Source: Pyrodictium abyssi (GTDB taxonomy: Archaea; Thermoproteota; Thermoprotei_A; Sulfolobales; Pyrodictiaceae). From it: 32,000 bases of DNA. Location of the stretch: positions 1,230,001 through 1,262,000 of the forward strand of contig NZ_AP028907.1 of NCBI RefSeq assembly GCF_036323395.1, in the 5' to 3' direction. The position numbers and the translations under genes were made by a program. The notes beneath the pieces are model-generated. The model had not been told where the DNA came from. It ran no database searches and saw only the letters and a list, made by a program, of their open reading frames with translations. Numbering within the stretch: the stretch's first letter is position 1; the number at the start of each line of letters is the position of its first letter. Of this stretch, positions 1,976 through 30,879 are shown one piece after another.

Positions 1976-3325
1976 TTGCGTGGAAAGAAGCTATACCTCG
2001 TAGTAGCCCTGGCTGCTGTCGCAGCCCTAGTAGCCGGCTACGTCCTCTACAGCAAGACCGGAGGCAAAACCCTGGGAGCAGGAGCCGTCACCGCTCCCGC
2101 TGAGTGCGGCAGCGGACCCGCCGTACTCGTGGTCTACAAGAAGGGCCAGGAAGACCTAGCAATGCTCGTCGAGGAGCTCCTAAAGAGGCAGCTCGTGGAC
2201 CACCTGCCGCAGGGCACGAGGTTCTGCCGAGCCACCGCTGGGGATACCGGGCTCACAGGGCTACGGGTCTATCCGGCTATACTGGTGCGCGCTGAGAACG
2301 TCAGCGCAATGCTGTCCAGCGCGCTCCTCAACGAGACCGTGGGCGGCGAGTGGCGCCCGATGCGCTACGACTACACAGCCGCGTTCGAGACGCAGATAGC
2401 GCTACAGTTCGGCCTACCGCTCCCAGTCTACCAGTACAGGGCTAGGCTCCTCGTGGTCGAGGGCTCCACGCCGCTCGCCACAATAGACCAGGCAGCCCTT
2501 GAGCCTGGTAGCCGCATAATGGCGCTGCTCTCAGCCGTGTTCGTGGCCAACATAACCGGGGTGGAGTACACCAAGGAGCCGCCAGCGGGCGCTAACCCCT
2601 CCAGCTTGCCGGCAGCATACGCGGTGTCGAGCGATCCGCTGGACCAGGGTGTCCCAGGGGTACAGAGGCTCGGGGACAACGTCTACGCCTCGACAGACAT
2701 AGACCTGGCCGAGGTGTTCCTCCAGCTAGGCGTAGCCAAGGCGGTCGAGAAGACCGGGGCGCCGCCGGGCATAGAGGGGCACCCCGCGATAGGCAGCGGC
2801 AGGATGCACATAGCGATATACGAGGACTTCGCCTGCCCCTACTGCGCCGAGTTCTACAACAAGACCTTCCCAGCCATAAAGGAGATGATAGACAGCGGCC
2901 AGGTGACGTTCCACATAGTAGACCTCATAGTACACCTCAACGAGAACGTGACCAAGCTACACAAGCTGCTACTATGCTACTACAACGCCACCGGCGACCC
3001 AGGGGCATACCTCGATGAGGCCATCCGCATATACAGCGAGGTAGCCAAGCTCTACCGTGACGCCAACATAACCTCCACGGCGGAGTTCTACAACAGGATA
3101 GGGGCGATACTAGAGGAGGAGAAGGCAAGGCTCGGCGTAGACCCCGACTGCGAGGCAGCAGCACTAGTAGACAAGGCGACCCACGACGCAGCCCAGGCCG
3201 GGCTACGCGGCACCCCCAGCTTCGCCATATGGGTAGAGGGGAGCGACCGGGTGCTCTACATAACCGGGTACCGCGACGCCGAGTTCTTCAAACAGCTAGT
3301 AGAGTCCTTGCAGCAGCAGGGCTAG
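1976..3325 (+). CDS. Membrane-anchored DsbA-like thiol:disulfide oxidoreductase with a long unassigned N-terminal domain
   Basis: TTG start. The N-terminal signal-anchor is KKLYLVVALAAVAALVAGYVLY. The C-terminal thioredoxin fold has a CPYC active site (IAIYEDFACPYCAEFY) and a cis-Pro-type loop (LRGTPSFAIWVEG). About 260 aa between anchor and DsbA domain have no motif I recognise. Confidence 0.75.
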   Translation: MRGKKLYLVVALAAVAALVAGYVLYSKTGGKTLGAGAVTAPAECGSGPAVLVVYKKGQEDLAMLVEELLKRQLVDHLPQGTRFCRATAGDTGLTGLRVYPAILVRAENVSAMLSSALLNETVGGEWRPMRYDYTAAFETQIALQFGLPLPVYQYRARLLVVEGSTPLATIDQAALEPGSRIMALLSAVFVANITGVEYTKEPPAGANPSSLPAAYAVSSDPLDQGVPGVQRLGDNVYASTDIDLAEVFLQLGVAKAVEKTGAPPGIEGHPAIGSGRMHIAIYEDFACPYCAEFYNKTFPAIKEMIDSGQVTFHIVDLIVHLNENVTKLHKLLLCYYNATGDPGAYLDEAIRIYSEVAKLYRDANITSTAEFYNRIGAILEEEKARLGVDPDCEAAALVDKATHDAAQAGLRGTPSFAIWVEGSDRVLYITGYRDAEFFKQLVESLQQQG

Positions 3326-3535: not shown

Positions 3536-4528
3536 TTATGGGCTCTGCGTCGCTCCGGGCTTTGCCGTGTACGCTACCATGTACACCGTGCAGTAGAAGA
3601 GGATGAACTCTGCTAGTATGATGAGCGAGGTTGCCGGGGGCGGGTAGAAGGCGTCTGCCCCTAGGGCTCCGTGGGCCCGGTATTTGAGGTAGACTAGGGC
3701 GGTGTACTCTGCGTGTAGCCCGCCGAACCCGGGGACCGGGAACATGGCCCACGTCGCCAGCGCCGCGTAGGCCTGGAGAGCGTCTAGCCCCGGGAAAGCG
3801 AACGGCCCCAAGGCTAGATGTTCTGCTAGGATTCGTAGAAGCCCATGATGACCTATGATCGGCGCAGCGACCAGGAACCGGGCCGGGCTACCACGGAGCC
3901 GCTTCAGCACCACAACGGACGACAGGCCAGCACCTATGTAGAAGACCGGGACCAGTGGGGCGGGGACCTCGCCGCCACCCACAGCGACGACATAGACTAT
4001 GAGGCCTGCCGCCAGCATCGGTATACCCGCGGCAGCGTAGACTATGAGCAGTATCCAGTAGAGCAGCGGGTCCACACTGCGCAGCTTTACCCTGCCCAGT
4101 AGGGGCTCCCACGCCTTCACCGCTAGAGCAGCATAGACTAGGTAGAACACGGGGTAGAGGAAGAGGATGTAGAGTAGGCCTAGCAGCCTAGGCACCTCTC
4201 CGGGAGGATACACCTCGGAGAAGACATCCACGCCTAGCCCGCAGGCCGCCCAGTCTGCGAGGAAGTAGGCGTAGAGAAGCAGGAAGCGTCTCCGCTGCAG
4301 CAGCCACGGGCGCAGAGCCGCCAAGACAAAGAACACGACACCGACAAAGTGGAAGCCCCAAGGAAGATACGGTAGAAGCATAGCATAGCCACTCTCCAGG
4401 CCGTACATCCCAGCGAGGTACACTATGAACCGGTGCTCAAGGACAATAGCCACAACCATACCACAAGCTACAAGGAGCGAGAAGAGGCGTAGAGCACTGT
4501 AGCCGCTCGCATCTCTATCTCCGCTCAT
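3536..4528 (-). CDS. Polytopic integral membrane protein, function unknown
   Basis: 330-aa ORF with roughly 8-9 hydrophobic helices (e.g. LFSLLVACGMVVAIVL, FHFVGVVFFVLAAL, LLYWILLIVYAAAGIPMLAAGLIVYVVAV). No CxxC or other catalytic motif. Convergent with the DsbA-like gene. Confidence 0.6.
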   Translation of the reverse strand: MSGDRDASGYSALRLFSLLVACGMVVAIVLEHRFIVYLAGMYGLESGYAMLLPYLPWGFHFVGVVFFVLAALRPWLLQRRRFLLLYAYFLADWAACGLGVDVFSEVYPPGEVPRLLGLLYILFLYPVFYLVYAALAVKAWEPLLGRVKLRSVDPLLYWILLIVYAAAGIPMLAAGLIVYVVAVGGGEVPAPLVPVFYIGAGLSSVVVLKRLRGSPARFLVAAPIIGHHGLLRILAEHLALGPFAFPGLDALQAYAALATWAMFPVPGFGGLHAEYTALVYLKYRAHGALGADAFYPPPATSLIILAEFILFYCTVYMVAYTAKPGATQSP

Positions 4529-8723: not shown

Positions 8724-9122
8724 CTAGACTGCGAGCACGCGGCGGCGATAGGACCGGTGCATCTCCTCATAAGCTTCCCGGTAGTCCAGCCACTCTACTA
8801 GAGCCCTCCACCGGTCCTCCACAAAAGCCTGGTAGTCGCCACCCACAAAGGCACCCCTCACAAGCGCCTCGTAGAGCAGCGGCAGACTAGCTCTTTCAAC
8901 CAATACCACCTCCACACGCCTACCTGTTTCAGCCTCGACAGCCTCTGCTAGCCTACCAGCCTCCACCGGAGAAAAGCCGCGGACAGCAAGATCCACGTCA
9001 CTAAGCCCACTACACCGCCCTTCAGCAGCACTACCGAACACCACGACATAGCCACCAGGCCCTAGCCCAAACCCCTCTACAACACGCCTAACCACCCGGA
9101 GAAGCTTCCTACAGCCAACCAT
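8724..9122 (-). CDS. mntA: MNT minimal nucleotidyltransferase antitoxin
   Basis: The GSx(n)DxD motif is present as VVVFGSAAEGRCSGLSDVDLAV. The track ORF runs to 9386, but its upstream 88 aa are Cys/Gly/Arg-rich and non-native. The start is therefore placed at ATG 9122 (132 aa, normal for MNT). Confidence 0.8.
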   Translation of the reverse strand: MVGCRKLLRVVRRVVEGFGLGPGGYVVVFGSAAEGRCSGLSDVDLAVRGFSPVEAGRLAEAVEAETGRRVEVVLVERASLPLLYEALVRGAFVGGDYQAFVEDRWRALVEWLDYREAYEEMHRSYRRRVLAV

Positions 9123-9611
9123 CCTGCCACCACACAGCAGGCCAGGAGCCCTACGACCACAGCGTACCAGGTGCCCTCCACAGCCTATAAGCACAAAGCC
9201 CCGAGCACCACGAATAGCCATCAGTCCTCCGAACTCCTCGCCGATACCCTTGGCGCCACGCAGCAGCCTAGACACCGCCTCCTCGCGGAGATGCAGCAGT
9301 AAGACGCCCCAGAGCCCCTCTCTCGGAGACCCGGATAAAGTGCAAGACGATATATAGAAGAACGTGCAGATAAAGCTTGCCAGCAAGGAGAGATATCTAT
9401 AAGGTAGACGGTATGTATCAATCTACACGGTGAAGATTCCTAGTGAGATTTATTTAGTCCACCTTTCCCCGATATAGACGTCTACTTAATCTTCCTACTT
9501 GCAACAATCACTACAATTATAGCAGGTAATATCCTTCACCTGCAAAAGAGGAGGCAACAGCAACTCCTTTGGATAGAAGCCATGCACAAATGAATCTCGT
9601 CATACCTGCAA

Positions 9612-11189: not shown

Positions 11190-11623
11190 CTACGGGATGA
11201 CTCTAAGCCACGGGATACGCTCAAAGTCCCGGTCAAGCGTCGCCATAGTGTCTATCCCTTGGTACTTACATGTCAATGCGATTATAGAGTCTGCGAGCAT
11301 GAGGCCGTACCTTTCGGTGACCTCGATTATCTCACGAGGCTCCGACGTTATAGGCAGGGCTATGAACAGCCCCAGTATGGGTTCTACTTCGTTTCTTATC
11401 AGCGTGATGAGCTTCTCGTCTCTTTTGCAAGCAGCTGTCTTATTCTCTTCGAGCTAAGCCCGGTGGCTAGTCTTAGATAGCCATAGATAACCTCATTCAC
11501 TACTATGGCGTTAATGTAGCCGGTAATAGCGTGGTCTTCAACCTTCTCGATAATCCTGTAGGCCCGCTGGTCCTGGCCTGCCAGGAAAGCCAAGATCACA
11601 CTAGAATCCACGAATATCCTCAT
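11190..11623 (-). pseudogene. vapC: PIN-domain VapC-type toxin with one frameshift
   Basis: N-terminus MRIFVDSSVILAFL (first catalytic Asp) is in ORF 11399..11623. The C-terminal half, translated by hand in another frame, is EKLITLIRNEVEPILGLF...YGLMLADSIIALTCKYQGIDTMATLDRDFERIPWLRVIP, with its stop at 11190-11192. The frame break lies near 11410-11440, and the span is not a multiple of 3. Confidence 0.75.
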
Positions 11624-11825
11624 TCTCTATCTCCTCAATAACCTCCAGGAACTCGCTCCTTGTCAGCTTTGGTCTATGCTTCCTCACAATACCGTAGAAC
11701 TTCTGGGCGAGGGAGCCTTCGCCGGCCTTTAGGACAATCACCACCTCCTCTCCTTCCTTCATCTCCAATGGTTCTAGTGGTTTGAGCACACCGTTCTCAT
11801 ACCTTGCTCTTATGACTCTGGGCAA
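11601..11825 (-). CDS. DUF104 (AF2212-like) antitoxin partner of the PIN gene
   Basis: 74 aa. IRARYENGVLKPLEPLEMKEGEEVVIVL is the characteristic DUF104 block. It overlaps the PIN start by 23 nt. Confidence 0.8.
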   Translation of the reverse strand: MPRVIRARYENGVLKPLEPLEMKEGEEVVIVLKAGEGSLAQKFYGIVRKHRPKLTRSEFLEVIEEIENEDIRGF

Positions 11826-23030: not shown

Positions 23031-23746
23031 CTCCTCTCGGGCTCGCCGGCTAGACGGGCTAGCTCCCTGTAGGCCTCCAGCAGGGCCTCGACGCCGCCAC
23101 CGCGCCTGTAGACCTCCTTGTCCAGGTGCCTACCCCCGCTGTCAACCAGCCTCATCGTGTCGCCTGTGACCTCGTCGACCACCACGAAGCCCGTGGCAGA
23201 CCGAGCCACCTCGATCTTAAGGTCTACTAGCCGGAGGCCCCGCCGGCGCCAGAACATCTCGAGGACGCTGCTTACCCGGAGGGCTAGGCTCTGGATGTCC
23301 CAGAGCTCCCGCCACGATAGGAGCCCGGCCTCGACAGCGTCCTCGGGGAGAACGAGCGGGTCGCCCCTCGCGTCGTCCTTGAGGTGCAGCTCCACCAGGG
23401 GCCGGAAGAGCCTCTCCATGGGCTTTAGGAGCGGCATCCTGCGAAGGAGCGAGCCATAGGCATAGTTCCTCACTATCACCTCGAGGGGGATGACCTCGTG
23501 CCTCCTAGCGAGGAGCCTGGAGCCGCCCATGTAGCACACATAGTGTGTCGGCACACCGTGCTCCTCTAGCAGCTCGAACATCCGGGCAGAGAGCCTGGCT
23601 GCTAGCTCGCCTTTGCCCGGCGCCGTGTCGCGGCGCTTGCCGTCGAACGCTGTGACCTCGTCCTTGAACTCGAGTACCACCAGGCCATTGCCCGCGTCGA
23701 GGACCCGCTTCGCCTTGCCCTCGTAGAGTAGCTCACCCGTGCGCAG
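23018..23746 (-). CDS. purC: SAICAR synthetase; the 5' end is uncertain because there is no canonical start codon
   Basis: The track ORF starts at GTG 23680 (MVLEFKDEVTAFDGKRRD). The same frame is open upstream and encodes the conserved PurC N-terminus LRTGELLYEGKAKRVLDAGNGL. The only start-like codon there is CTG at 23746, which would give a canonical length of 242 aa. Confidence 0.85.
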   Translation of the reverse strand: MRTGELLYEGKAKRVLDAGNGLVVLEFKDEVTAFDGKRRDTAPGKGELAARLSARMFELLEEHGVPTHYVCYMGGSRLLARRHEVIPLEVIVRNYAYGSLLRRMPLLKPMERLFRPLVELHLKDDARGDPLVLPEDAVEAGLLSWRELWDIQSLALRVSSVLEMFWRRRGLRLVDLKIEVARSATGFVVVDEVTGDTMRLVDSGGRHLDKEVYRRGGGVEALLEAYRELARLAGEPERRCTG

Positions 23747-23788
23747 CCCGGACCCCCGGGGTCCCGGAACTTGCCTGAGTAACTGGTC

Positions 23789-23798
23789 TAAAAATATT
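23789..23798 (-). promoter_or_regulatory. TATA-like element (minus strand AATATTTTTA) upstream of the pur operon
   Basis: This is the only AT-rich box between the upstream stop and purC. It lies about 45 nt upstream of CTG 23746. A 15-nt palindrome GGACCCC-C-GGGGTCC (23750-23764) lies between it and the putative start. Confidence 0.3.
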
Positions 23799-24149
23799 CC
23801 AGGATGTAGGACCCCGTAGCTCTTACTTAGCTAAGTGAATAAGCAAGCTACTCGGCCTAGTTACATGAACTACACGCGCGAATATCCTTGCAGATACAGA
23901 TGTGCACGGACTGCGTGCGAATACCATATAGTACGCTAGGCCGTGGTCCCCGGGCAAACGAGTGTAGAGTATCCTACAAGCGAGTGTTAATGATCGCTCG
24001 GCTATAGCCAATATAGTAGGCCCCTTTACTCGGTTTTAGCAGCGGTATTTGGACCGAACCGTGTAATTCACGCCCGAAGACCATAGGAATTGTATTAGAT
24101 GCCGATGTTAAAGGAGATCCCAATGGCGCCGTATCTCTGAATCCTGAAG

Positions 24150-24630
24150 GAGAATCTAGAGCTACCCGTCGGCTTCGTCTGGGTGCTGGCCAGCGCCTTC
24201 CCAGTATTCTTCATGCAGGCTTCGCCATGGTAGGAGCCGTTCACCAGGCTAAAGAACACGATAAGCGCGTTGCTTAAGAACCCATCATGCTTCACTGTGG
24301 CTGGCATGGGCTTGTCCGCCTAGTCGGCTACACATCCACGATGGACAGTGACTGGGAAGGCGTCGTTTGACCGGCTGCTTTGCGCTAATAGGAGGCAACT
24401 ATGGTGCTAGAGAGATGCTCTTATGGTTCTTCTATGCGAGTGTCTGCAGGAGCAGCTGCAACTATCGTCTCTGGCGCCATAGCCTAGAAGACGAAACTCA
24501 CAAGCTATCTGCTAGACAGCGTAACGATGACTGCTTTTCATCTAGCCGGTACATGGCCACCGGACACCGGATATGGGGGGTGACTGGGCTACCCCTAGGG
24601 AAGGCTCACCAGAGGCTGTCTGGCTAGGAG
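24150..24630 (+). pseudogene. amt: Ammonium transporter (Amt/MEP) remnant: N-terminal third only, with multiple frameshifts and stops
   Basis: Hand translation across the three plus frames gives Amt signature blocks. These are VWVLASAFPVFFMQA-GFAMV-FTRLKNTISALLKN and, further on, AGAAATIVSGAIA(stop)KTKLTSYLL...PVHGH, which compare with Amt MQAGFAMxEAGxxRxKN and ATIVSGAxAER. The track ORFs 24095..24307(-) and 24367..24627(+) are fragments or shadows of this remnant. Confidence 0.6.
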
Positions 24631-24639
24631 GCCCTTTGC

Positions 24640-25076
24640 CTATTCTGTGTCCGCCCTAGCGCCTTGCAGCCATGCGCTGGTGCCTACTGCTATGTCTCTC
24701 GCCTTTGCCAGTATTTCTTTGTCGCTTGTCAATAGCTTCGCCCCGTGTAGCCTCGCGTAGTAGACGTATGCCGCGTCGTAGGCTGTTAGGCCTAGCTGCT
24801 CTGCTAGCTTGCTAATCGCCTCCAGGTCTTCTGGCTTGATGCGCAATACCGCCAGGTGCCCGGCGAGCCTGGATACAGCAGCGGCTAGCCGGTGGGGCTC
24901 CTGTACGAGCCCTCTACGCGCCTCTATGACGGCGGCGTTGGCTGCCTCGTACAACGTTAGGTCGAGTACCGCTGCCTCTTCCTCGAGCAGCTTCTCGGCG
25001 ACCATGCATCGCTCACAGCGTCGCGGTACAGCAGCTTAGCGAGAGGATACAGGGCGGATGCATCGAGTATTATCAA
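24640..25076 (-). pseudogene. vapC: PIN-domain VapC-type toxin with one frameshift
   Basis: N-terminus (TTG)IILDASALYPLAKLLY is in the frame of ORF 24957..25310. The rest, AEKLLEEEAAVLDLTLYEAANAAV...GLTAYDAAYVYYARLHGAKLLTSDKEI, is in ORF 24640..25005. The break lies near 25005-25040. The TTG start overlaps the corrected vapB stop as TTGA (25073-25076). Confidence 0.75.
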
Positions 25077-25310
25077 GCCGTGGCCCTCCCTCGGCGGGAA
25101 GCTTTGACCGCCTCTACCCAGTCTTCCACGGTGAGATCCCCGCCAGCAGCGGCTAGTTCTCTCAGCGCTTCTGCTATCCTCTTCTTCCTCTCCTCTATGA
25201 CATGCGCGGCGTAGGGACTCCTCTACGACGCGGCGGATATCTATGCCTAGGCGCTCGGCCTCCTCCTTGAGCTTGCGGGGTACGCGGACAGAGACCACCA
25301 CGGTGGACAA
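25073..25310 (-). pseudogene. vapB: Ribbon-helix-helix VapB-type antitoxin with one frameshift
   Basis: TTG start. MSTVVVSVRVPRKLKEEAERLGIDIRRVVEESLRRA is a typical RHH strand plus helices. After about 25203 the plausible continuation VIEERKKRIAEALRELAAAGGDLTVEDWVEAVKASRRGRATA(stop 25073-25075) is in another frame. The span is 3n+1 nt. Confidence 0.65.
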
Positions 25311-25548: not shown

Positions 25549-27330
25549 ATGCGGCGTAGGGTACGGGAAGGTATGACTGCAGAGCCTGGCTCTCGCCTTC
25601 TCCCGTTCCCCGCTGGCGTGTTATTCGCTGTTGTCATCGGGTCGCTTGTCTCCGGGGGCTATGTCCTCTACCTCCACGGGCTCGCCGTGGCGTTTGCCTC
25701 GGAGCCCCTCCTAGTCCTGGCGCTGAGGCTGGCACTAGCCGCTCTGGGGCTTGCACCGTTACTCTACGGGCTGGCCCGGGTGGGGCTCCAGAGGCTACTA
25801 GGGCTCGCCAGCGGGGGAAGGCTTGGAGCGGGGCTCGCCGGGTTCCTGGTGGGTGCTGGGGCTGCTGGGCTCCTGCTCCTGGGCGTCTATGGCGTCGCGA
25901 GTACTGCTGCCCTCGTGGTCTACTGGTTCACTGGCGGGTTGGTGTCGGCTGCCGCCGTCTACGAGATAGTAACGCGTAGCCGCCGCGCCGCCGCCGGCTA
26001 CTTCGCTGTGGCTGTTCTGCTCTTCGCCCTACTGGGGCTCGTGGAACTCTACGCCCCCGTGGAGGCCAGCAAGCACATAACTGTCGAGGCGCTCGACGAG
26101 CCTATAGACGTTAACGGGCTCAAGCGCTTCATACCACTGATGACCGCCTACGCGTATGCTAGCGACCGTATACAGATACCGACCCACCGAGTCTACCCCG
26201 GGGACAGCTACGTCTACTACCTCGGCAACCACAGCGTCTACAACTGGATAATAGAGCCGGAGGGCTTCTGGAACCAGCTCACCAAGACACCGCTCGGCGC
26301 CGTGTTTGTCTACGGCGACGAGTACCCGCCGCGCGTCCTGGTGGTCGAGAGGAGGCTCGAGTGGGGGCTCCACAACAAGAGGTTCCGGCTACTCTTCCTA
26401 GACACGCTCGAGCGCCGCATAGTCCTGGCCTCTGGGCTCCGGTACAAGCCGCTGCTAGAGGACAACATAGAGGTGCTCTACGGCGGGAGGATCTACATCC
26501 TCGTGCCCCTCGTCTCCTGGACCCGGGGCCTCCTCTACAGCCTCCCTGTGCTCCACGGCTACGCCATAGTGGACGAGGACGGGGACATAGAGGTGGTGGC
26601 CGGGGACAGGCTGGCGAGCGACCCGCGGCTGAAGGGCATGCCGCTGCTCCCCGAGGCCGTCGCCCGGGAGTGGGTCGAGGCCTACCGGTACAGGGTGGGC
26701 CTGCTGGGGTTCTACCTCTATCACAACACCTACGTAATCCGCGACACGGGCACCAACCCGCAGCCCTACCTAGAGCAGGGAAGCGACGGCCAGCTCTACT
26801 GGGTGTTCGTCGCCGAGCCTCCAGGGGAGACCTACAGCGCCAAGTACATCATCTACGTCGACGCCGCCAGCATCTCGGAGCCGAGGCTGCTCTTCTACGA
26901 GCTGCCCGAGCCCGTGATAGGCGTGAGCAAGGTGGAGAGCTACGTGAAGCAGGCACACCCGACCTACGACTGGGGCGAGCTCAGCATAGAGGAGCCAATG
27001 CCCACACTACTCAACGGGGCGCTCTACTGGAAGGCCACGGTGACGACCAGGGACCACCGTGGCCTAGTCTCGGTCGACATCATAGACGCTGCTAGCGGCG
27101 AAGTAGTCTCCCTACAGCCACGGCGCCGCGTGACGTACCTAGACGCGCTCCACGCGCTCCTCCAGGGCAGAGCCGCCGAGAAGCCCGCGGCCGAGAGCCT
27201 AGAGGAGAGGATAGCGGAGCTCGAGCACCGCGTAGCAGAGGCGATAAAAGCCCTCGAGGAGATACAGCGCGAGCTACAAGAGCTGAGACAGCTAGTAGCA
27301 AACAACACCCCATCCACCAGCCAGGGATAA
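25549..27330 (+). CDS. Large membrane protein: N-terminal multi-TM bundle, about 370-aa soluble/extracytoplasmic domain, C-terminal coiled coil; family unknown
   Basis: 593 aa. Five to six hydrophobic helices fall in residues ~15-175. A Tyr/Trp-rich central region includes PQPYLEQGSDGQLYWVFVAEP and LLNGALYWKATVTT. The heptad-like tail is ESLEERIAELEHRVAEAIKALEEIQRELQELRQLV. ATG 25573 is an alternative start. Confidence 0.7.
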   Translation: MRRRVREGMTAEPGSRLLPFPAGVLFAVVIGSLVSGGYVLYLHGLAVAFASEPLLVLALRLALAALGLAPLLYGLARVGLQRLLGLASGGRLGAGLAGFLVGAGAAGLLLLGVYGVASTAALVVYWFTGGLVSAAAVYEIVTRSRRAAAGYFAVAVLLFALLGLVELYAPVEASKHITVEALDEPIDVNGLKRFIPLMTAYAYASDRIQIPTHRVYPGDSYVYYLGNHSVYNWIIEPEGFWNQLTKTPLGAVFVYGDEYPPRVLVVERRLEWGLHNKRFRLLFLDTLERRIVLASGLRYKPLLEDNIEVLYGGRIYILVPLVSWTRGLLYSLPVLHGYAIVDEDGDIEVVAGDRLASDPRLKGMPLLPEAVAREWVEAYRYRVGLLGFYLYHNTYVIRDTGTNPQPYLEQGSDGQLYWVFVAEPPGETYSAKYIIYVDAASISEPRLLFYELPEPVIGVSKVESYVKQAHPTYDWGELSIEEPMPTLLNGALYWKATVTTRDHRGLVSVDIIDAASGEVVSLQPRRRVTYLDALHALLQGRAAEKPAAESLEERIAELEHRVAEAIKALEEIQRELQELRQLVANNTPSTSQG

Positions 27331-27385
27331 TCCTTAGGCGATAAGAGACCGAAAGAGGCTATTACAGATTTATGTAAATATAGAA

Positions 27386-27781
27386 TTATGAAAAGTCTAT
27401 ACCCCCCAGCTTTAGTTCTCTTGGAGGCTTATAGAGTAGGCCTAGCTTCTTGAGGACTTCTCTTCCGAGTAGGGCTCTCCTTGCGCCTAGTGTCGTGTAG
27501 GCGCTGCAGGTTATCTTCGAGCCGCCTATCTCTACCACCGCCCTGGAGACCCTGAGCTCTATCGTGTTGCCGACGGCGGTCTGTGCTACTGCTTTCGGCT
27601 CCTCAAAGAGGTTGAGATCGAGGAGAATGTAGGTCTTTAGTGGGATTAGTATCCCTCCCTGGAACCCCGTGTCTATAATGAACTCTACCTCGGCTTCTCG
27701 GTCACCTAGCACATTGTAGACCCTAGCTCTCACCACTGGGGCGTAGTTCTCCTCGTCGTTCCTAAAGTATGTGACAGTCAC
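27386..27781 (-). CDS. Retropepsin-like (clan AA) aspartic protease, COG5550-type
   Basis: 131 aa. Catalytic D-T-G in EVEFIIDTGFQGGILIP, followed by the downstream LLGREVLKKLGL block typical of single-lobe, homodimeric retropepsin-like proteins. Confidence 0.75.
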   Translation of the reverse strand: MTVTYFRNDEENYAPVVRARVYNVLGDREAEVEFIIDTGFQGGILIPLKTYILLDLNLFEEPKAVAQTAVGNTIELRVSRAVVEIGGSKITCSAYTTLGARRALLGREVLKKLGLLYKPPRELKLGGIDFS

Positions 27782-27788
27782 TCCAGGG

Positions 27789-28205
27789 TCACCAGGGCAG
27801 CCCTAGCTCCACTCTTCTCCCGTCCCCTTGGCGGGGAAGCTGGATTATCAGCGCTTGGTCTCTGCATTCTCTCCGCGAGGCCGCTGCTGCCTCCTCGTGG
27901 CTCGGGTAGACGCCTACTAGGCGCCCGTTGCACAGGAGGGCGTATCCCTTCTGGCCTTCTAGTAGCTGTGGGTTCTCTTCGAGTACTCTAAGGTTTTCCT
28001 GGTAGGCTTGTTCGAGGCGTGCCCAGAGGCGGGCTTCCTCGTAGTCTCCTCTGCTCTCTATCCACAGCCTAACGGCCTCCTCGAATATGGAGGTTACCGT
28101 CCTGCCCTCGAGCGATGCATAGGCCTTGACAAGCCGGTAAAGCTCCTCGTCGAAGTTCTTGACCGCTACTAGCCTTGTTCTACGCAGGCTTCTAGACCCA
28201 GCCAA
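27789..28205 (-). CDS. RHH DNA-binding domain fused to a DUF5678-like domain; upstream partner of the protease
   Basis: TTG start, 138 aa. VAVKNFDEELYRLVKAYASLEGRTVTSIFEEAVRLWIE matches the RHH pattern (beta strand plus two helices). The C-terminal GYALLCNGRLVGVYPSHEEAAAAS resembles DUF5678, which I am recalling from memory. Its stop lies 7 nt before the protease start. Confidence 0.65.
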   Translation of the reverse strand: MAGSRSLRRTRLVAVKNFDEELYRLVKAYASLEGRTVTSIFEEAVRLWIESRGDYEEARLWARLEQAYQENLRVLEENPQLLEGQKGYALLCNGRLVGVYPSHEEAAAASRRECRDQALIIQLPRQGDGRRVELGLPW

Positions 28206-28210
28206 TCTAG

Positions 28211-28223
28211 TTAACCCGGTTAA
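28211..28223. promoter_or_regulatory. Perfect palindrome TTAACC-C-GGTTAA: candidate operator of the RHH-protease cassette
   Basis: Read directly from the sequence. It begins 6 nt upstream of the TTG start at 28205, the position where archaeal repressors commonly act (between the TATA box and the start). Confidence 0.3.
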
Positions 28224-28310
28224 ACCAGATGCACCGGCTAGTCTTAAGCCTTGGGGTTGAAGCCGCTACGCCATAGCCCATAGCGCGTGGACTAGAGCCG
28301 TGAACGTCGT

Positions 28311-29682
28311 CTACAGCTTCTCCGCGATCTCTCTGGCTACTGCTTCTATGCGTCTCCGGTATCTCTGGAGGGCGTTTAGCAGTGCTTCGGGGCCTCCCTT
28401 GGCTAGTAGTTTTTCCCGGACCGCGTGGGAGGCTGCTGCCTCTGGGTTCTCTAGTATCTGCTCGAGGCTGTCTGCTAGGCTTGCCATGGCCAGGTTCCAG
28501 CGGAGGTAGTTCCTCACCTTCTCCTCGCCGTGCCTGGCGGCTGCTGCCCGTAGCGCTTCTGAGAGCCTGGTGTAGGCCTTTACCAGCTTCCGGTACTCCT
28601 CCCTGTACCTGGAGGCGAAGCTGGCGAAGGGCGTGCCTTCTAGGAGGGGGAGCAGGTCGTCTATCCTCCCTGCCGCGGCTAGCCGGGCTATGCGGCGGTA
28701 CATGCTCCTGCGGGTCGCCTCGTCTACCTCTGCTGCTCCTAGGAGGCTCTGGAGCACGTACCTCCGGTTCTTGATCTTCAGCATGTAGTTCCACCAGGGA
28801 AAGCCCAGATAGGTCTCGCCCGGGAAGAGGACGACTATCCCCTCGCCGCCCAGCTCCTCGGCAGCCCTAACCAGCTCCTGGATGGTCTCTGCCTCTACCC
28901 GGCGTGGCCTGGGGAAGCCCGTGTCTGGAGCGTGTAGCACACCTCCATAGTGTCGTGCCTCCTCGCTGCAAGGAGGTAGACTCTCCACCGGGGGTCGCCG
29001 GGCGGAGCCTCGAGCTCCCTCCCTAGGCACCGGCTAAGCAGGGCACCCGGCGTTCACAAGCTCGAACATCACCGTGGTGTCCTCCTTTACGAGGCTCTCG
29101 AGCTCCCAGCCCGCCACCCTTTACAGCCGCCAGGAGTCTCTCGACGTAGAGGTTCCGTGCTGCAGGCGGCCGGTGTAGGCTCCCCCGGGTGCTTAGGAGC
29201 AGCTCACCGGTATCCGGGTCGCGGTACGCTGCCACCAGTGTGCCGTCCAGCTTCTCGGTGGCCACGAACCCGGCTCCGGGTATCCTGGAGCACTCCCGGC
29301 ACTCACGGTAGTTGAAGAACTTGGCAAAGGGCATTGCGGGCTGCTTCACCGCGCCGCCGGGGTAGTGGCGCACCACGGCCCCACGCGCAGCCGCTAGTAT
29401 GAGTCTTCGGAGATAGTCCCGGGGCTGCAGGCTGTACTTGTAGAGCAGGATACACTCCTTGCCGGAGGGGAGGAGGCACCGCCTGCTCCACATGCGGTTG
29501 ACAGCAGCCATAGCCCTGCGGATCTCGTCTAGGCCCGCCCCTGGGCCGGCTCCTACTAGCCGGGCTAGGAGGCCCTGCTCGCCGCTACTGAGCCCCTCTA
29601 GGTCCCTATAGTACACCTCGAAGGGCATGAGCAAGGGCCGGCTACACCTCCGGGCCAGCGCCCTCGGGTCCATGTACGGCAC
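28311..29682 (-). pseudogene. ATP-dependent RNA ligase of the T4 Rnl1 type, interrupted by at least three frame changes and one in-frame TAG
   Basis: The following motifs were assembled by hand across frames. Pre-motif FAKFFNYRE (T4 Rnl1 KFFNLNE). Motif I TEKLDGTLV (KxDG). Motif Ia LSTRGS. Motif III TVMFELV. WRVYLLAARRHDT. Motif IV GEGIVVLFPG. Motif V MLKIKNRRY. There is also a helical C-terminal domain. Frame breaks lie near 29110, 29045 and 28940. The track splits the gene into 29023..29682 and 28311..29030. Confidence 0.75.
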
Positions 29683-29865: not shown

Positions 29866-30879
29866 GTGGCGGTGTACCGGGGGCTGGGGGGCTGGCTGTT
29901 CTCCTTGCTCCCGCGGTTCGTGGATCGTGTCGAGGAGCTGCGTAGGCTTGAGGCCTACGCGCTGGAGGGGTACTACCCGGTACTCTACCTCTACGGGCCC
30001 GAGGGCTGCGGCAAGACCCGGCTCCTCCGGGAGCTCCACCAGGTGCTGAAGCAGCGCGGCGACGTGGTAGCGGTCTACGTGGATGCTCAGAGCACGTCGG
30101 GGCCCTGGGAGGCTGTGGAGGCCCCTCCGGAGCTGGCCCGGCTCCTCGCGGAGGCTGCTGCGGAGTATGCTGGGCCCCCGGGCCGGGCGGCTGCGCTGGC
30201 TCTGCTCCGCGTCCTCGGCCGGGTCCGGGAGCGGCTCGTCCGCGGCAAGCACGTCGTGGTGCTCGTGGACGATGTGGCGCGCCCCCTGGGGCTAGAGAGG
30301 GTAGAGGCCTACACGAAGAGCCTCTTAGACCTCGTGGAGAGGCTCCAGGCCCAGGGCGCTGCGAGCGTGCTAGCCCTGGCGACTACGAGCGAGGCGGCGA
30401 GCCGCAGCATCTTGGCGAGGCACAGCCACGCCTCGCTAGCCCAGCTCTGGAACCTGGGCCCCGAGGCCTTCGAGGAGCTACTAGAGGTCCTCAGCGCGCC
30501 CCGCCACGTGCGGGAGCAGGCATGGAGGCTGCTGGGCGGCAACCCCCGGCTAGCCCTAGCCCTCCGTGCGAGAGGCTGGAGGGCTGAGAGGCTCATAGAG
30601 GACACGTATCCCCGTGTACGCGCCCTCCTCGAGGAGCTCCCCAGGAGCCTCCTCCGGGGCCTAGAGGAGGCCGTAGAGGACCCGGACGCCCTGAGGGAGA
30701 ACCAGGAGCTACGCCGACACCTCGTCGAGGCGAACCTCGCCACGCCGGTGGAGAGGCCATGCCTAGGCTACACGCCCCCGCCCGACCCCGAGCAGGGGGT
30801 GGGCAGGAGCTACGTCTGGCAGACACCGCTATACCGGATACTCGCCAAAAAGTACCTAGAAGAAGCGGGGAAGCCATGA
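29866..30879 (+). CDS. Archaeal P-loop NTPase (Arch_ATPase-like), paralogue B
   Basis: FVDRVEEL, Walker A YGPEGCGKTRLLREL, Walker B HVVVLVDDVARPLGLERVEAY, and AWRLLGGNPR. Collinear with ORF 4914..5954. Divergent from the RNA ligase pseudogene, with a 183-nt spacer. Confidence 0.75.
   Translation: MAVYRGLGGWLFSLLPRFVDRVEELRRLEAYALEGYYPVLYLYGPEGCGKTRLLRELHQVLKQRGDVVAVYVDAQSTSGPWEAVEAPPELARLLAEAAAEYAGPPGRAAALALLRVLGRVRERLVRGKHVVVLVDDVARPLGLERVEAYTKSLLDLVERLQAQGAASVLALATTSEAASRSILARHSHASLAQLWNLGPEAFEELLEVLSAPRHVREQAWRLLGGNPRLALALRARGWRAERLIEDTYPRVRALLEELPRSLLRGLEEAVEDPDALRENQELRRHLVEANLATPVERPCLGYTPPPDPEQGVGRSYVWQTPLYRILAKKYLEEAGKP

Follow-up and report, generated by a model that had tools for sequence, protein, structure and literature searches.

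Conservation and possible role of a gene pair for a ribbon-helix-helix protein and a predicted retropepsin-like protease in Pyrodictium abyssi and related archaea

Background

Why would an archaeon keep the gene of a small aspartic protease directly behind the gene of a DNA-binding protein? A two-gene cassette of Pyrodictium abyssi raises this question, and we analysed it within a stretch of 32,000 nucleotides (nt) of the genome (assembly GCF_036323395.1, contig NZ_AP028907.1, positions 1,230,001 to 1,262,000 of the forward strand; hereafter the window, whose own numbering is used for all its positions). The first gene, A, encodes a protein with a putative ribbon-helix-helix (RHH) domain, a DUF5678-like domain and a conserved tail. 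The second gene, B, encodes a predicted retropepsin-like aspartic protease. We found that both genes stay together down to low sequence identity, that a tandem repeat array in front of A is conserved among orthologous loci, and that the pair may represent an autorepressed module resembling type II toxin-antitoxin (TA) systems.

Sequences of prokaryotic single-domain retropepsin-like proteases have been on record for more than 15 years, with next to no biology assigned to them in archaea. The paper that deals with them as pSNCAPs states that 'little is known' of them and regards them as orphan open reading frames (ORFs) (PMC2642776). The protease family already has its names (TIGR03698, COG5550) and the partner is an annotated DUF. 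When we searched the literature for DUF5678, TIGR03698, COG5550 and retropepsin together with TA, archaea or defence, neither the pair, nor the operator, nor the function was described, and DUF5678 occurred in one unrelated paper. A TA survey lists no aspartic protease (PMC2701414), and the archaeal dark-matter and immunity papers made no mention of aspartic proteases. A preliminary description of this DNA, made from the letters and their ORFs, knew of no experimentally characterised system of such composition; we found no published characterisation in the literature searched.

Results

A gene pair retained across distant relatives

The gene models of A and B agree with the deposited P. abyssi annotation, where both products are labelled 'hypothetical protein', and the A product is 100% identical to the P. 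abyssi protein BES81820.1, on a 2.22-Mb contig. The two genes are co-directional and separated by 7 nt (CCCTGGA, 27788-27782), just as the preliminary description had placed them. A GGTGA stretch in front of B would be complementary to the 3' end of the archaeal 16S rRNA in the manner of a Shine-Dalgarno sequence, and its position is the one that would be expected for a translated second cistron. The features of the locus are collected in Table 1.

Table 1. Features of the A-B locus in window coordinates (aa, amino acids; AF2, AlphaFold2)
Feature	Position	Strand	Description	Basis
Gene A (PABY_13870)	28205..27789	minus	138 aa, TTG start	ORF list and GenBank annotation
Gene B (PABY_13860)	27781..27386	minus	131 aa, GTG start	ORF list and GenBank annotation
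Putative RHH domain of A	28050..28178	minus	residues ~10-52; beta-strand RLVAVKNF, helices 20-33 and 37-51	
Predicted long linker helix of A	27960..28043	minus	residues ~55-82; invariant W61	AF2 and A2 alignment
DUF5678-like domain of A	27834..27956	minus	residues ~84-124; GYALLCNGRLVGVYPSHEEA...ALIIQLP	AF2
C-terminal tail of A	27792..27824	minus	residues 128-138, ending VELGLPW-COOH	alignment; AF2
Predicted catalytic D37-T38-G39 of B	27665..27673	minus		alignment conservation
G106-R107-E108 of B	27458..27466	minus	counterpart of retropepsin GR(D/N)	alignment conservation
Operator-like element	28208..28225	minus	two tandem 9-nt units, GTTTAACCG (28225-28217) and GGTTAACTA (28216-28208)	orthologue comparison
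Repeat-pair type named for P. abyssi			GTTTAACNNGGTTAAC	
Candidate promoter element CTTAAGA	28242..28248	minus	-44 to -38; only TATA-like stretch upstream	kept in L083
Shine-Dalgarno-like GGTGA for B	27789..27793	minus	overlaps A stop codon, 7 nt before B GTG	read from sequence

At the level of the family, the two genes are tightly linked in other genomes too, a point that the preliminary description had proposed to check. A homologue of A lay directly upstream of B, on the same strand, in 18 of the 18 genome loci having upstream DNA; the organisms of the genome loci were Desulfurococcales metagenome-assembled genomes (MAGs), Staphylothermus, Ca. Methanodesulfokora, and MAGs labelled Thaumarchaeota or Nitrososphaeria. 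Each of six distant B relatives at 29-35% identity, Sulfurisphaera javensis among them, had an overlapping gene upstream for a protein of 119-139 aa, and these upstream proteins matched the A profile at E 1e-16 to 1e-28. For a third subfamily, from metagenomes, the pair was present in 39 of 47 loci, and the misses were four contig edges and four weak or partial B matches. Altogether, among all the fetched loci, B stood directly downstream of 67 of the 75 A-like ORFs, the other eight being contig ends or decayed copies. The pair is retained down to ~25-30% identity, with the two genes overlapping or at most ~10 nt apart across loci.

When we clustered all the flanking ORFs, nothing else was common to the loci unless the genomes were near-identical. 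Since the pair is kept and no flanking genes are shared, A-B is a self-contained two-gene module. The ratio of nonsynonymous to synonymous substitutions (dN/dS) was 0.19 for A against its closest relative, and 0.10 and 0.055 for B against its closest relatives. These values point to purifying selection on both genes and agree with the earlier proposal that both are intact and under selection.

Decayed copies of the module were also seen (L018, L069, L081 with the A gene at 3600-3961, L068, and L074-L076). Either A or B was split by a frameshift, or B matched only over its first 54-70 residues though the contig continued.

The protease

B had been taken for a retropepsin-like aspartic protease from its FIIDTGFQGG motif, which is indeed present in the translation and includes the DTG of Table 1. 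The preliminary description had proposed hidden Markov model searches as a check, and B passed the NCBIfam model TIGR03698 (clan_AA_DTGF) by a small margin (57.6 bits, cut-off 57.35, E 1.4e-15). The matches to PF13975 (22.7 bits, gathering score 28.2, E 1.5e-4) and PF13650 (19.5 bits, gathering score 24.3, E 1.7e-3) were significant and below the threshold. Searching PDB sequences with the profile of the protease gave no match, and the link to retropepsins came from the fold search alone. The AF2 model of B, with a predicted local distance difference test (pLDDT) of 86.6 and a predicted template modelling score of 0.79, retrieved the EIAV, HIV-1, SIV, XMRV and HTLV-1 proteases with Foldseek at probability 1.0. 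There were 75 matches at E <= 1e-3, and the template modelling scores to the target were 0.66-0.74 for the EIAV, HIV-1 and XMRV proteases.

The residues around the active site are conserved as well. Among 38 relatives, down to 24% identity, T38, G39, F40, G42 and R107 were invariant, and D37, G106 and E108 were kept in at least 90% of these family members. We take the GRE motif to be the equivalent of G86-R87-N88 in the HIV-1 protease (PR). G71 is invariant and lies at the tip of a hairpin, as seen in a 26-sequence alignment and the AF2 model, and we read this hairpin as a putative flap-like element. In the same model, residues 4-7 and 122-124 form terminal strands, which could provide a dimer interface. 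Taking sequence and model together, B is a single-domain, single-lobe retropepsin-like (clan AA) aspartic protease.

An exhaustive profile search retrieved 443 B-family clusters at 50% identity. The best 150 of these 443 representatives were nearly all stand-alone proteins of 54-156 aa, and a Rosetta-stone fusion of A and B was looked for among the same 150 with none found. The protease profile also matched two very long proteins around the DTG region, P0262 (2057 aa) in 7 and P0293 (3011 aa) in 10 short, separate stretches, and these may be repeat or retroelement-type proteins. Using PADLOC, B had weak generic peptidase and PEPT_D matches, and A had no match in its defence library.

The partner protein

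A is built of an RHH domain, a long helix, a DUF5678-like beta-beta-alpha-beta domain and a disordered conserved tail, in this order (AF2 model with pLDDT 76.5). The N-terminal segment was unstructured in the AF2 monomer, which would be expected for an RHH protein whose strands pair only in the dimer. Against the PDB, the profile of the A2 alignment matched ORF E73 (4aai, E 2.2e-4) and SvtR/56B (2kel, E 5.9e-3), which are archaeal-virus RHH proteins. Foldseek also ranked SvtR first (probability 0.93), with Arc, FitA and VapB-type RHH antitoxins among the other matches, all of them at E ~1 or more over a short match. When searching Pfam, 25 of the 26 A homologues matched RH3_dom (best E 5e-6) and 12 of the 26 matched PSK_trans_fac, and the window protein alone stayed sub-threshold against the RHH families (E 0.008). 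Its best Pfam matches include the antitoxin families PSK_trans_fac, FitA-like_RHH and ParG, and PHROGs gave a weak match to an Arc-like repressor (E 0.0038). With a strand followed by two helices and a similarity to known RHH proteins, the N-terminus of A is assigned as an RHH domain of the Arc/MetJ/CopG kind; the profile, Foldseek and Pfam matches of the homologues support what had been suggested for it.

The second domain of A had been called DUF5678-like, and the A motif GYALLCNGRLVGVYPSHEEAAAAS given in the preliminary description is present in the translation. Residues 87-123 adopt a beta-beta-alpha-beta arrangement in the AF2 model with pLDDT 85-93. The relationship to DUF5678 stood as remote homology by profile, but not as a PF18929 match of the window protein: A had no match to PF18929 (gathering score 23.2 bits) at E <= 1, and its isolated C-terminal domain none at E <= 5. 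Among the A homologues, 8 of 26 matched PF18929 weakly (best E 6.3e-4). When 65 distinct C-terminal domains of A proteins were combined into a profile, it scored 17.0 bits against a bona fide DUF5678 protein of locus L081, with a maximum of 9.2 bits in 1000 shuffles, and the UniRef name for the A protein is 'DUF5678 domain-containing'. Thus, the C-terminal domain of A appears to be only a remote homologue of DUF5678.

That DUF5678 protein of L081 is part of another pair. At 1991-2619 on the minus strand, a 68-aa DUF5678 protein without RHH domain (PF18929, 38.7 bits) overlaps a 140-aa retropepsin-like protein, for which DSG and ILGR motifs and a weak PF13650 match (E 1.6e-3) are our sole grounds to speak of a protease. 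The two genes adjoin a PIN gene (2686-3084), and the same contig bears an A-B module. This single example suggests that DUF5678 is a general protease-partner domain, to which the A family has added the RHH domain. At another locus, L079, a stand-alone 119-aa PF13650/PF13975 aspartyl protease (8857-9216) is encoded 3.5 kb downstream of the A-B module, with no DUF5678 or RHH partner upstream.

The C-terminal tail of A is predicted to be disordered (AF2, pLDDT <50), and in 26 A orthologues G135, P137 and W138 are invariant and L134 nearly so, with the closing stretch ELGLPW-COOH altogether invariant or almost invariant. Other subfamilies keep hydrophobic tails of their own after the DUF5678-like domain: VELGWSLVEIE, VEFGMSLFEGTL, LALGMGVLE, (G)EW[WL]GGS[IL]xx and GEWLWSSIASE. 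The VELGLPW-group proteins end at the position where the tails of the other subfamilies continue. Retropepsins prefer hydrophobic or aromatic residues at P1 and P1'. We infer that the tail of A may sit in the cleft of B as a pseudo-substrate and, in the VELGLPW group, as a product mimic.

Operator-like repeats in front of the pair

The preliminary description had reported a palindromic operator upstream of A. A perfect palindrome, TTAACC-N-GGTTAA, is present at 28211-28223, with its last base 6 nt before the first base of the start codon, but the element as a whole is a tandem array of 9-nt repeats and the palindrome is their junction. We discarded the palindrome alone as evidence, as perfect 6-1-6 palindromes are common (15 in the 32-kb window, and 73 perfect palindromes when spacers of 0-4 nt are counted), and retained it only for the conserved repeats. 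It is more than chance because the underlying repeats are conserved in orthologous loci.

In the orthologues, two to four tandem repeats (consensus GTTTAACTA) directly abut the start codon, and their CTAG-type cores recur at 9-nt intervals. There are two repeats in P. abyssi and three or four in most orthologues, and most orthologues have TATATA or TTATAA at about -30, before the repeats. A position weight matrix (PWM) of the repeat was trained on 5 loci and tested on 17 held-out loci, where it matched 20 of the 663 upstream positions, compared to 143 of 143,303 in the background (30-fold, Fisher p 1.6e-22). The matches in the held-out loci were spaced 9 nt apart, and GGTTAACTA was the top motif match in the whole window, with 14.8 bits. 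A distant subfamily has TTACCTAG repeats with equal period and position. Both units of the P. abyssi array are also present in L083, its closest relative (85-90% protein identity), where the palindrome is imperfect. We also considered a second operator site at 11482-11492 (PWM 13.8 and 8.7 bits), which lies inside a truncated PIN coding sequence and was dismissed as chance.

An array of short, partly palindromic subsites between a TATA box and a start codon is what an RHH autorepressor would need, and A is the candidate to bind it. Both P. abyssi and L083 lack the TATA box at -30, and CTTAAGA at -44 is the only AT-rich stretch.

Composition, distribution and genomic context

The cassette has a GC content of 0.52-0.57, compared to 0.65-0.73 in the flanking genes (window 27200-28400), which is consistent with a horizontal acquisition. 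The window also has low GC (0.53-0.57) at 23600-24800, where no convincing ORF was seen. There is no tRNA gene in the window to mark an integration site, and we rejected a viral or plasmid origin since no relatives were found in IMG/VR, PLSDB or GenBank phages.

By pattern, there were 20 genome loci among 185,579 species, and only P. abyssi and S. javensis had the module on a contig longer than 1 Mb among all matches. TA genes (PIN/RHH, HEPN/MNT, HepT) were located within 5 kb of the module in L021, L024, L078, L081 and the window, and TA-type neighbours occurred in 4 of the 10 annotated contexts.

Around the cassette itself, the preliminary description had seen an island of TA modules with degraded neighbours. 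A broken VapBC-like pair, a truncated PIN gene and a split RNA-ligase-like gene are there, but genes of other types adjoin too: purine-biosynthesis-like ORFs, named by eye from their translations, and a 593-aa ORF that was read by eye as a membrane protein and has no Pfam hit. The VapBC-like pair (24640-25310, minus strand) is broken by frameshifts. Its PIN ORF (24640-25005) matches Pfam PIN only from profile position 21, and the missing N-terminus, IILDASAL, is found at the end of ORF 24957-25310, which begins with an RHH/CcdA-like segment. At 11399-11825 on the minus strand, a DUF104-like antitoxin ORF (11601-11825, MPRVIRARYENGVLKPLEPL...) precedes a PIN-like ORF truncated to 74 aa (11399-11623); it looks like a decayed TA pair, both assignments being made by eye.

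Directly upstream of the cassette, at 28311-29682 on the minus strand, there is an ATP-dependent RNA ligase-like gene with a KLDG motif and weak matches to PF09511 and PF09414 (E 0.01-0.04). It is split into the overlapping ORFs 29023-29682 and 28311-29030, which suggests a frameshift. Finally, an archaeal ATPase (PF01637 ATPase_2, E 4e-35; weakly NACHT/STAND-like) is encoded on the opposite, plus strand at 29866-30879, ~1.7 kb upstream of the cassette. Archaeal ATPase genes of this kind are common in variable islands.

Discussion

What the pair may do

What would such a pair do in the cell? We see an even chance that A-B works like a type II TA module under its own repression, with A acting as repressor of the operon and also binding, or blocking, the dimer of B. 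As the preliminary description noted, the layout copies that of a type II TA operon; gene order and spacing match, and a conserved operator-like element is found at the promoter. From the conserved DNA and protein features, dimers of A would bind the tandem 9-nt repeats GTTTAACCG/GGTTAACTA through their RHH domains. The repeats lie between the promoter and the start codon, and therefore we propose that this binding represses the A-B operon. A would also bind B through its DUF5678-like domain, with the VELGLPW-COOH tail placed in the substrate cleft of the B homodimer, where, as a pseudo-substrate or product mimic, it would keep the protease inactive. More speculatively, when A is degraded or not replenished (by stress, infection or locus loss), free B dimers might be released and cleave cellular or viral proteins, so that growth would stop. 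A role in TA or abortive infection (Abi) is suggested by the architecture, the variable context and the patchy distribution.

Several points weigh against this proposal. The toxicity of B, the A-B complex and the DNA binding by A are presumed from sequence features. To our knowledge, no protease is established as a type II toxin, nor did we find one in the literature searched. Where classical antitoxins have a purely disordered toxin-binding region, A has a folded partner domain, and its tail could instead serve another partner or be a degron. About half of the contexts examined are housekeeping ones (L026, L027, L029, L079 and L080), and the lack of relatives in IMG/VR, PLSDB plasmids and GenBank phages weakens the case for a mobile addiction module. 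Moreover, expression in P. abyssi is only putative, because this genome lacks the canonical TATA box at about -30 and A begins with TTG.

A wider form of the proposal is that DUF5678 is a dedicated inhibitor of archaeal retropepsins, which would dock on the protease dimer and place the hydrophobic tail, in P. abyssi already shaped like a P-side product, in the active-site cleft, that A-B is the first TA or Abi module with an aspartic protease as toxin, that the RHH domain couples inhibition to repression through the tandem repeats, and that the pair of L081 is the minimal, RHH-less form. We regard this extension as tentative and rather doubtful.

Other explanations

The same features could also be arranged into a switch like that of ImmR/ImmA or Xre-COG2856, where A would repress its own operon, and perhaps distant GTTTAACTA-type targets, and B, not being toxic, would cleave A on a signal (e.g., at the tail or linker) and derepress a regulon. 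A repressor gene followed by the gene of its protease is a known layout (ImmR/ImmA and COG2856-Xre; PMC2701414), and the cleavage of a type II antitoxin by a caspase homologue is documented (PMC7935541). The tails of A speak for it too: ELGLPW, ELGWSL|VEIE, EFGMSL|FEGTL and EWWGGSI resemble retropepsin-type substrates, and the W-group proteins stop where other tails go on. The DUF5678-protease pair beside a PIN gene in L081 can be counted on the same side. However, no cargo or neighbour gene is conserved with the pair, hence there is no obvious regulon; the top operator-motif matches elsewhere in the window are inside coding sequence (11482-11492), and neither plasmids nor viruses nor identifiable integrated elements yielded a copy. 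We consider such a switch unlikely. A regulated cellular protease with its adaptor or chaperone seems to us improbable to a similar degree. In that case B would process one or few host proteins, the DUF5678 domain and tail of A would recruit substrates or stabilise the B dimer, and the RHH domain would provide dosage feedback, with neither addiction nor defence involved. Half of the contexts being housekeeping, the strong purifying selection on A and B, a B family made almost wholly of small stand-alone proteins without other domains, and the related partnerless aspartyl protease of L079 would all suit a cellular enzyme. But a core processing enzyme would not be expected to show absent synteny, atypical GC, decayed copies and TA neighbours, nor the patchy distribution seen here, with few complete genomes having the module, and an adaptor has no need of an invariant free C-terminus.

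Finally, B could be an accessory protease linked to CRISPR, akin to the small aspartic proteases of type III-D loci in Sulfolobales and acting downstream of CRISPR signalling. Its match in PADLOC is PDLC01133 ('Aspartyl protease, in the type III operon in Sulfolobales'; E 7.9e-6), and the Asp_prot (Saci_1895) family is listed in PMC3973734. That match is weak, though, the CRISPR-linked proteins have ~100 aa and come with no mention of an RHH-DUF5678 partner, and no cas family was found among the neighbours in the annotated loci or the scanned window ORFs. This largely refutes the idea for the B family, and we give it hardly any weight.

Implications

At the level of the protease family, the pairing brings an obligate partner, conserved operator-like repeats and a candidate inhibitory tail, and with them a concrete and testable model. 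Should B be toxic and be neutralised by A, aspartic proteases would be a new enzymatic class of TA or defence effectors, and DUF5678 would gain a function. A natural protein inhibitor of a retropepsin active site would also bear on how dimeric proteases were regulated before their recruitment by retroelements. If B is not toxic, hyperthermophiles would still have in this module a compact circuit of repressor and protease, with a well-defined operator.

Comparison with known systems

The closest layout is that of type II TA operons with RHH antitoxins (VapBC with RHH VapB, RelBE, ParDE, FitAB and AtaRT), which have the same order of two small genes, DNA-binding protein first, in near-overlap. 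Both share an RHH domain, an operator-like element at the own promoter and a C-terminal region of the first protein available for the second, together with a variable context, TA-rich neighbourhoods, a patchy distribution and decayed copies. In contrast, the effector of A-B is a predicted retropepsin-like aspartic protease and not an RNase, kinase or acetyltransferase, for which we found no precedent. For binding its partner, A is proposed to use a folded DUF5678-like domain together with a short invariant tail, and the searches of plasmids and viruses gave no copies of the module.

In ImmR/ImmA and Xre-COG2856 (PMC2701414), too, one operon combines a repressor gene with the gene of a small protease behind it, and the likely substrate or partner of the protease is the DNA-binding protein. 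Their protease is a zinc metalloprotease and their repressor has a helix-turn-helix, whereas A-B has a predicted dimeric retropepsin-like aspartic protease and an RHH domain; genes of mobile elements are not linked to it, and its two proteins were not seen fused among the 150 best representatives.

As for the protease, B is a member of the TIGR03698/COG5550 single-domain clan AA peptidases (pSNCAPs, PMC2642776), with ~130 aa, a DTGF motif and the retropepsin fold, but the A partner, the operator and the conserved tail are not mentioned there. The CRISPR type III-D Asp_prot (Saci_1895; PADLOC PEPT_D) is also a small archaeal protein with a retropepsin domain, related by the weak profile similarity given above; unlike it, B has no cas linkage, 131 instead of ~100 aa, and a dedicated RHH-DUF5678 partner. 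With HIV-1, EIAV and XMRV PR, B shares the fold, the DTG, a flap-like hairpin with an invariant glycine, the GR(E) motif and the terminal strands. Their identity to B is only 15-24%, B has neither a polyprotein nor a retroelement context, and, instead of autoprocessing, we propose that it is regulated by a separate partner protein.

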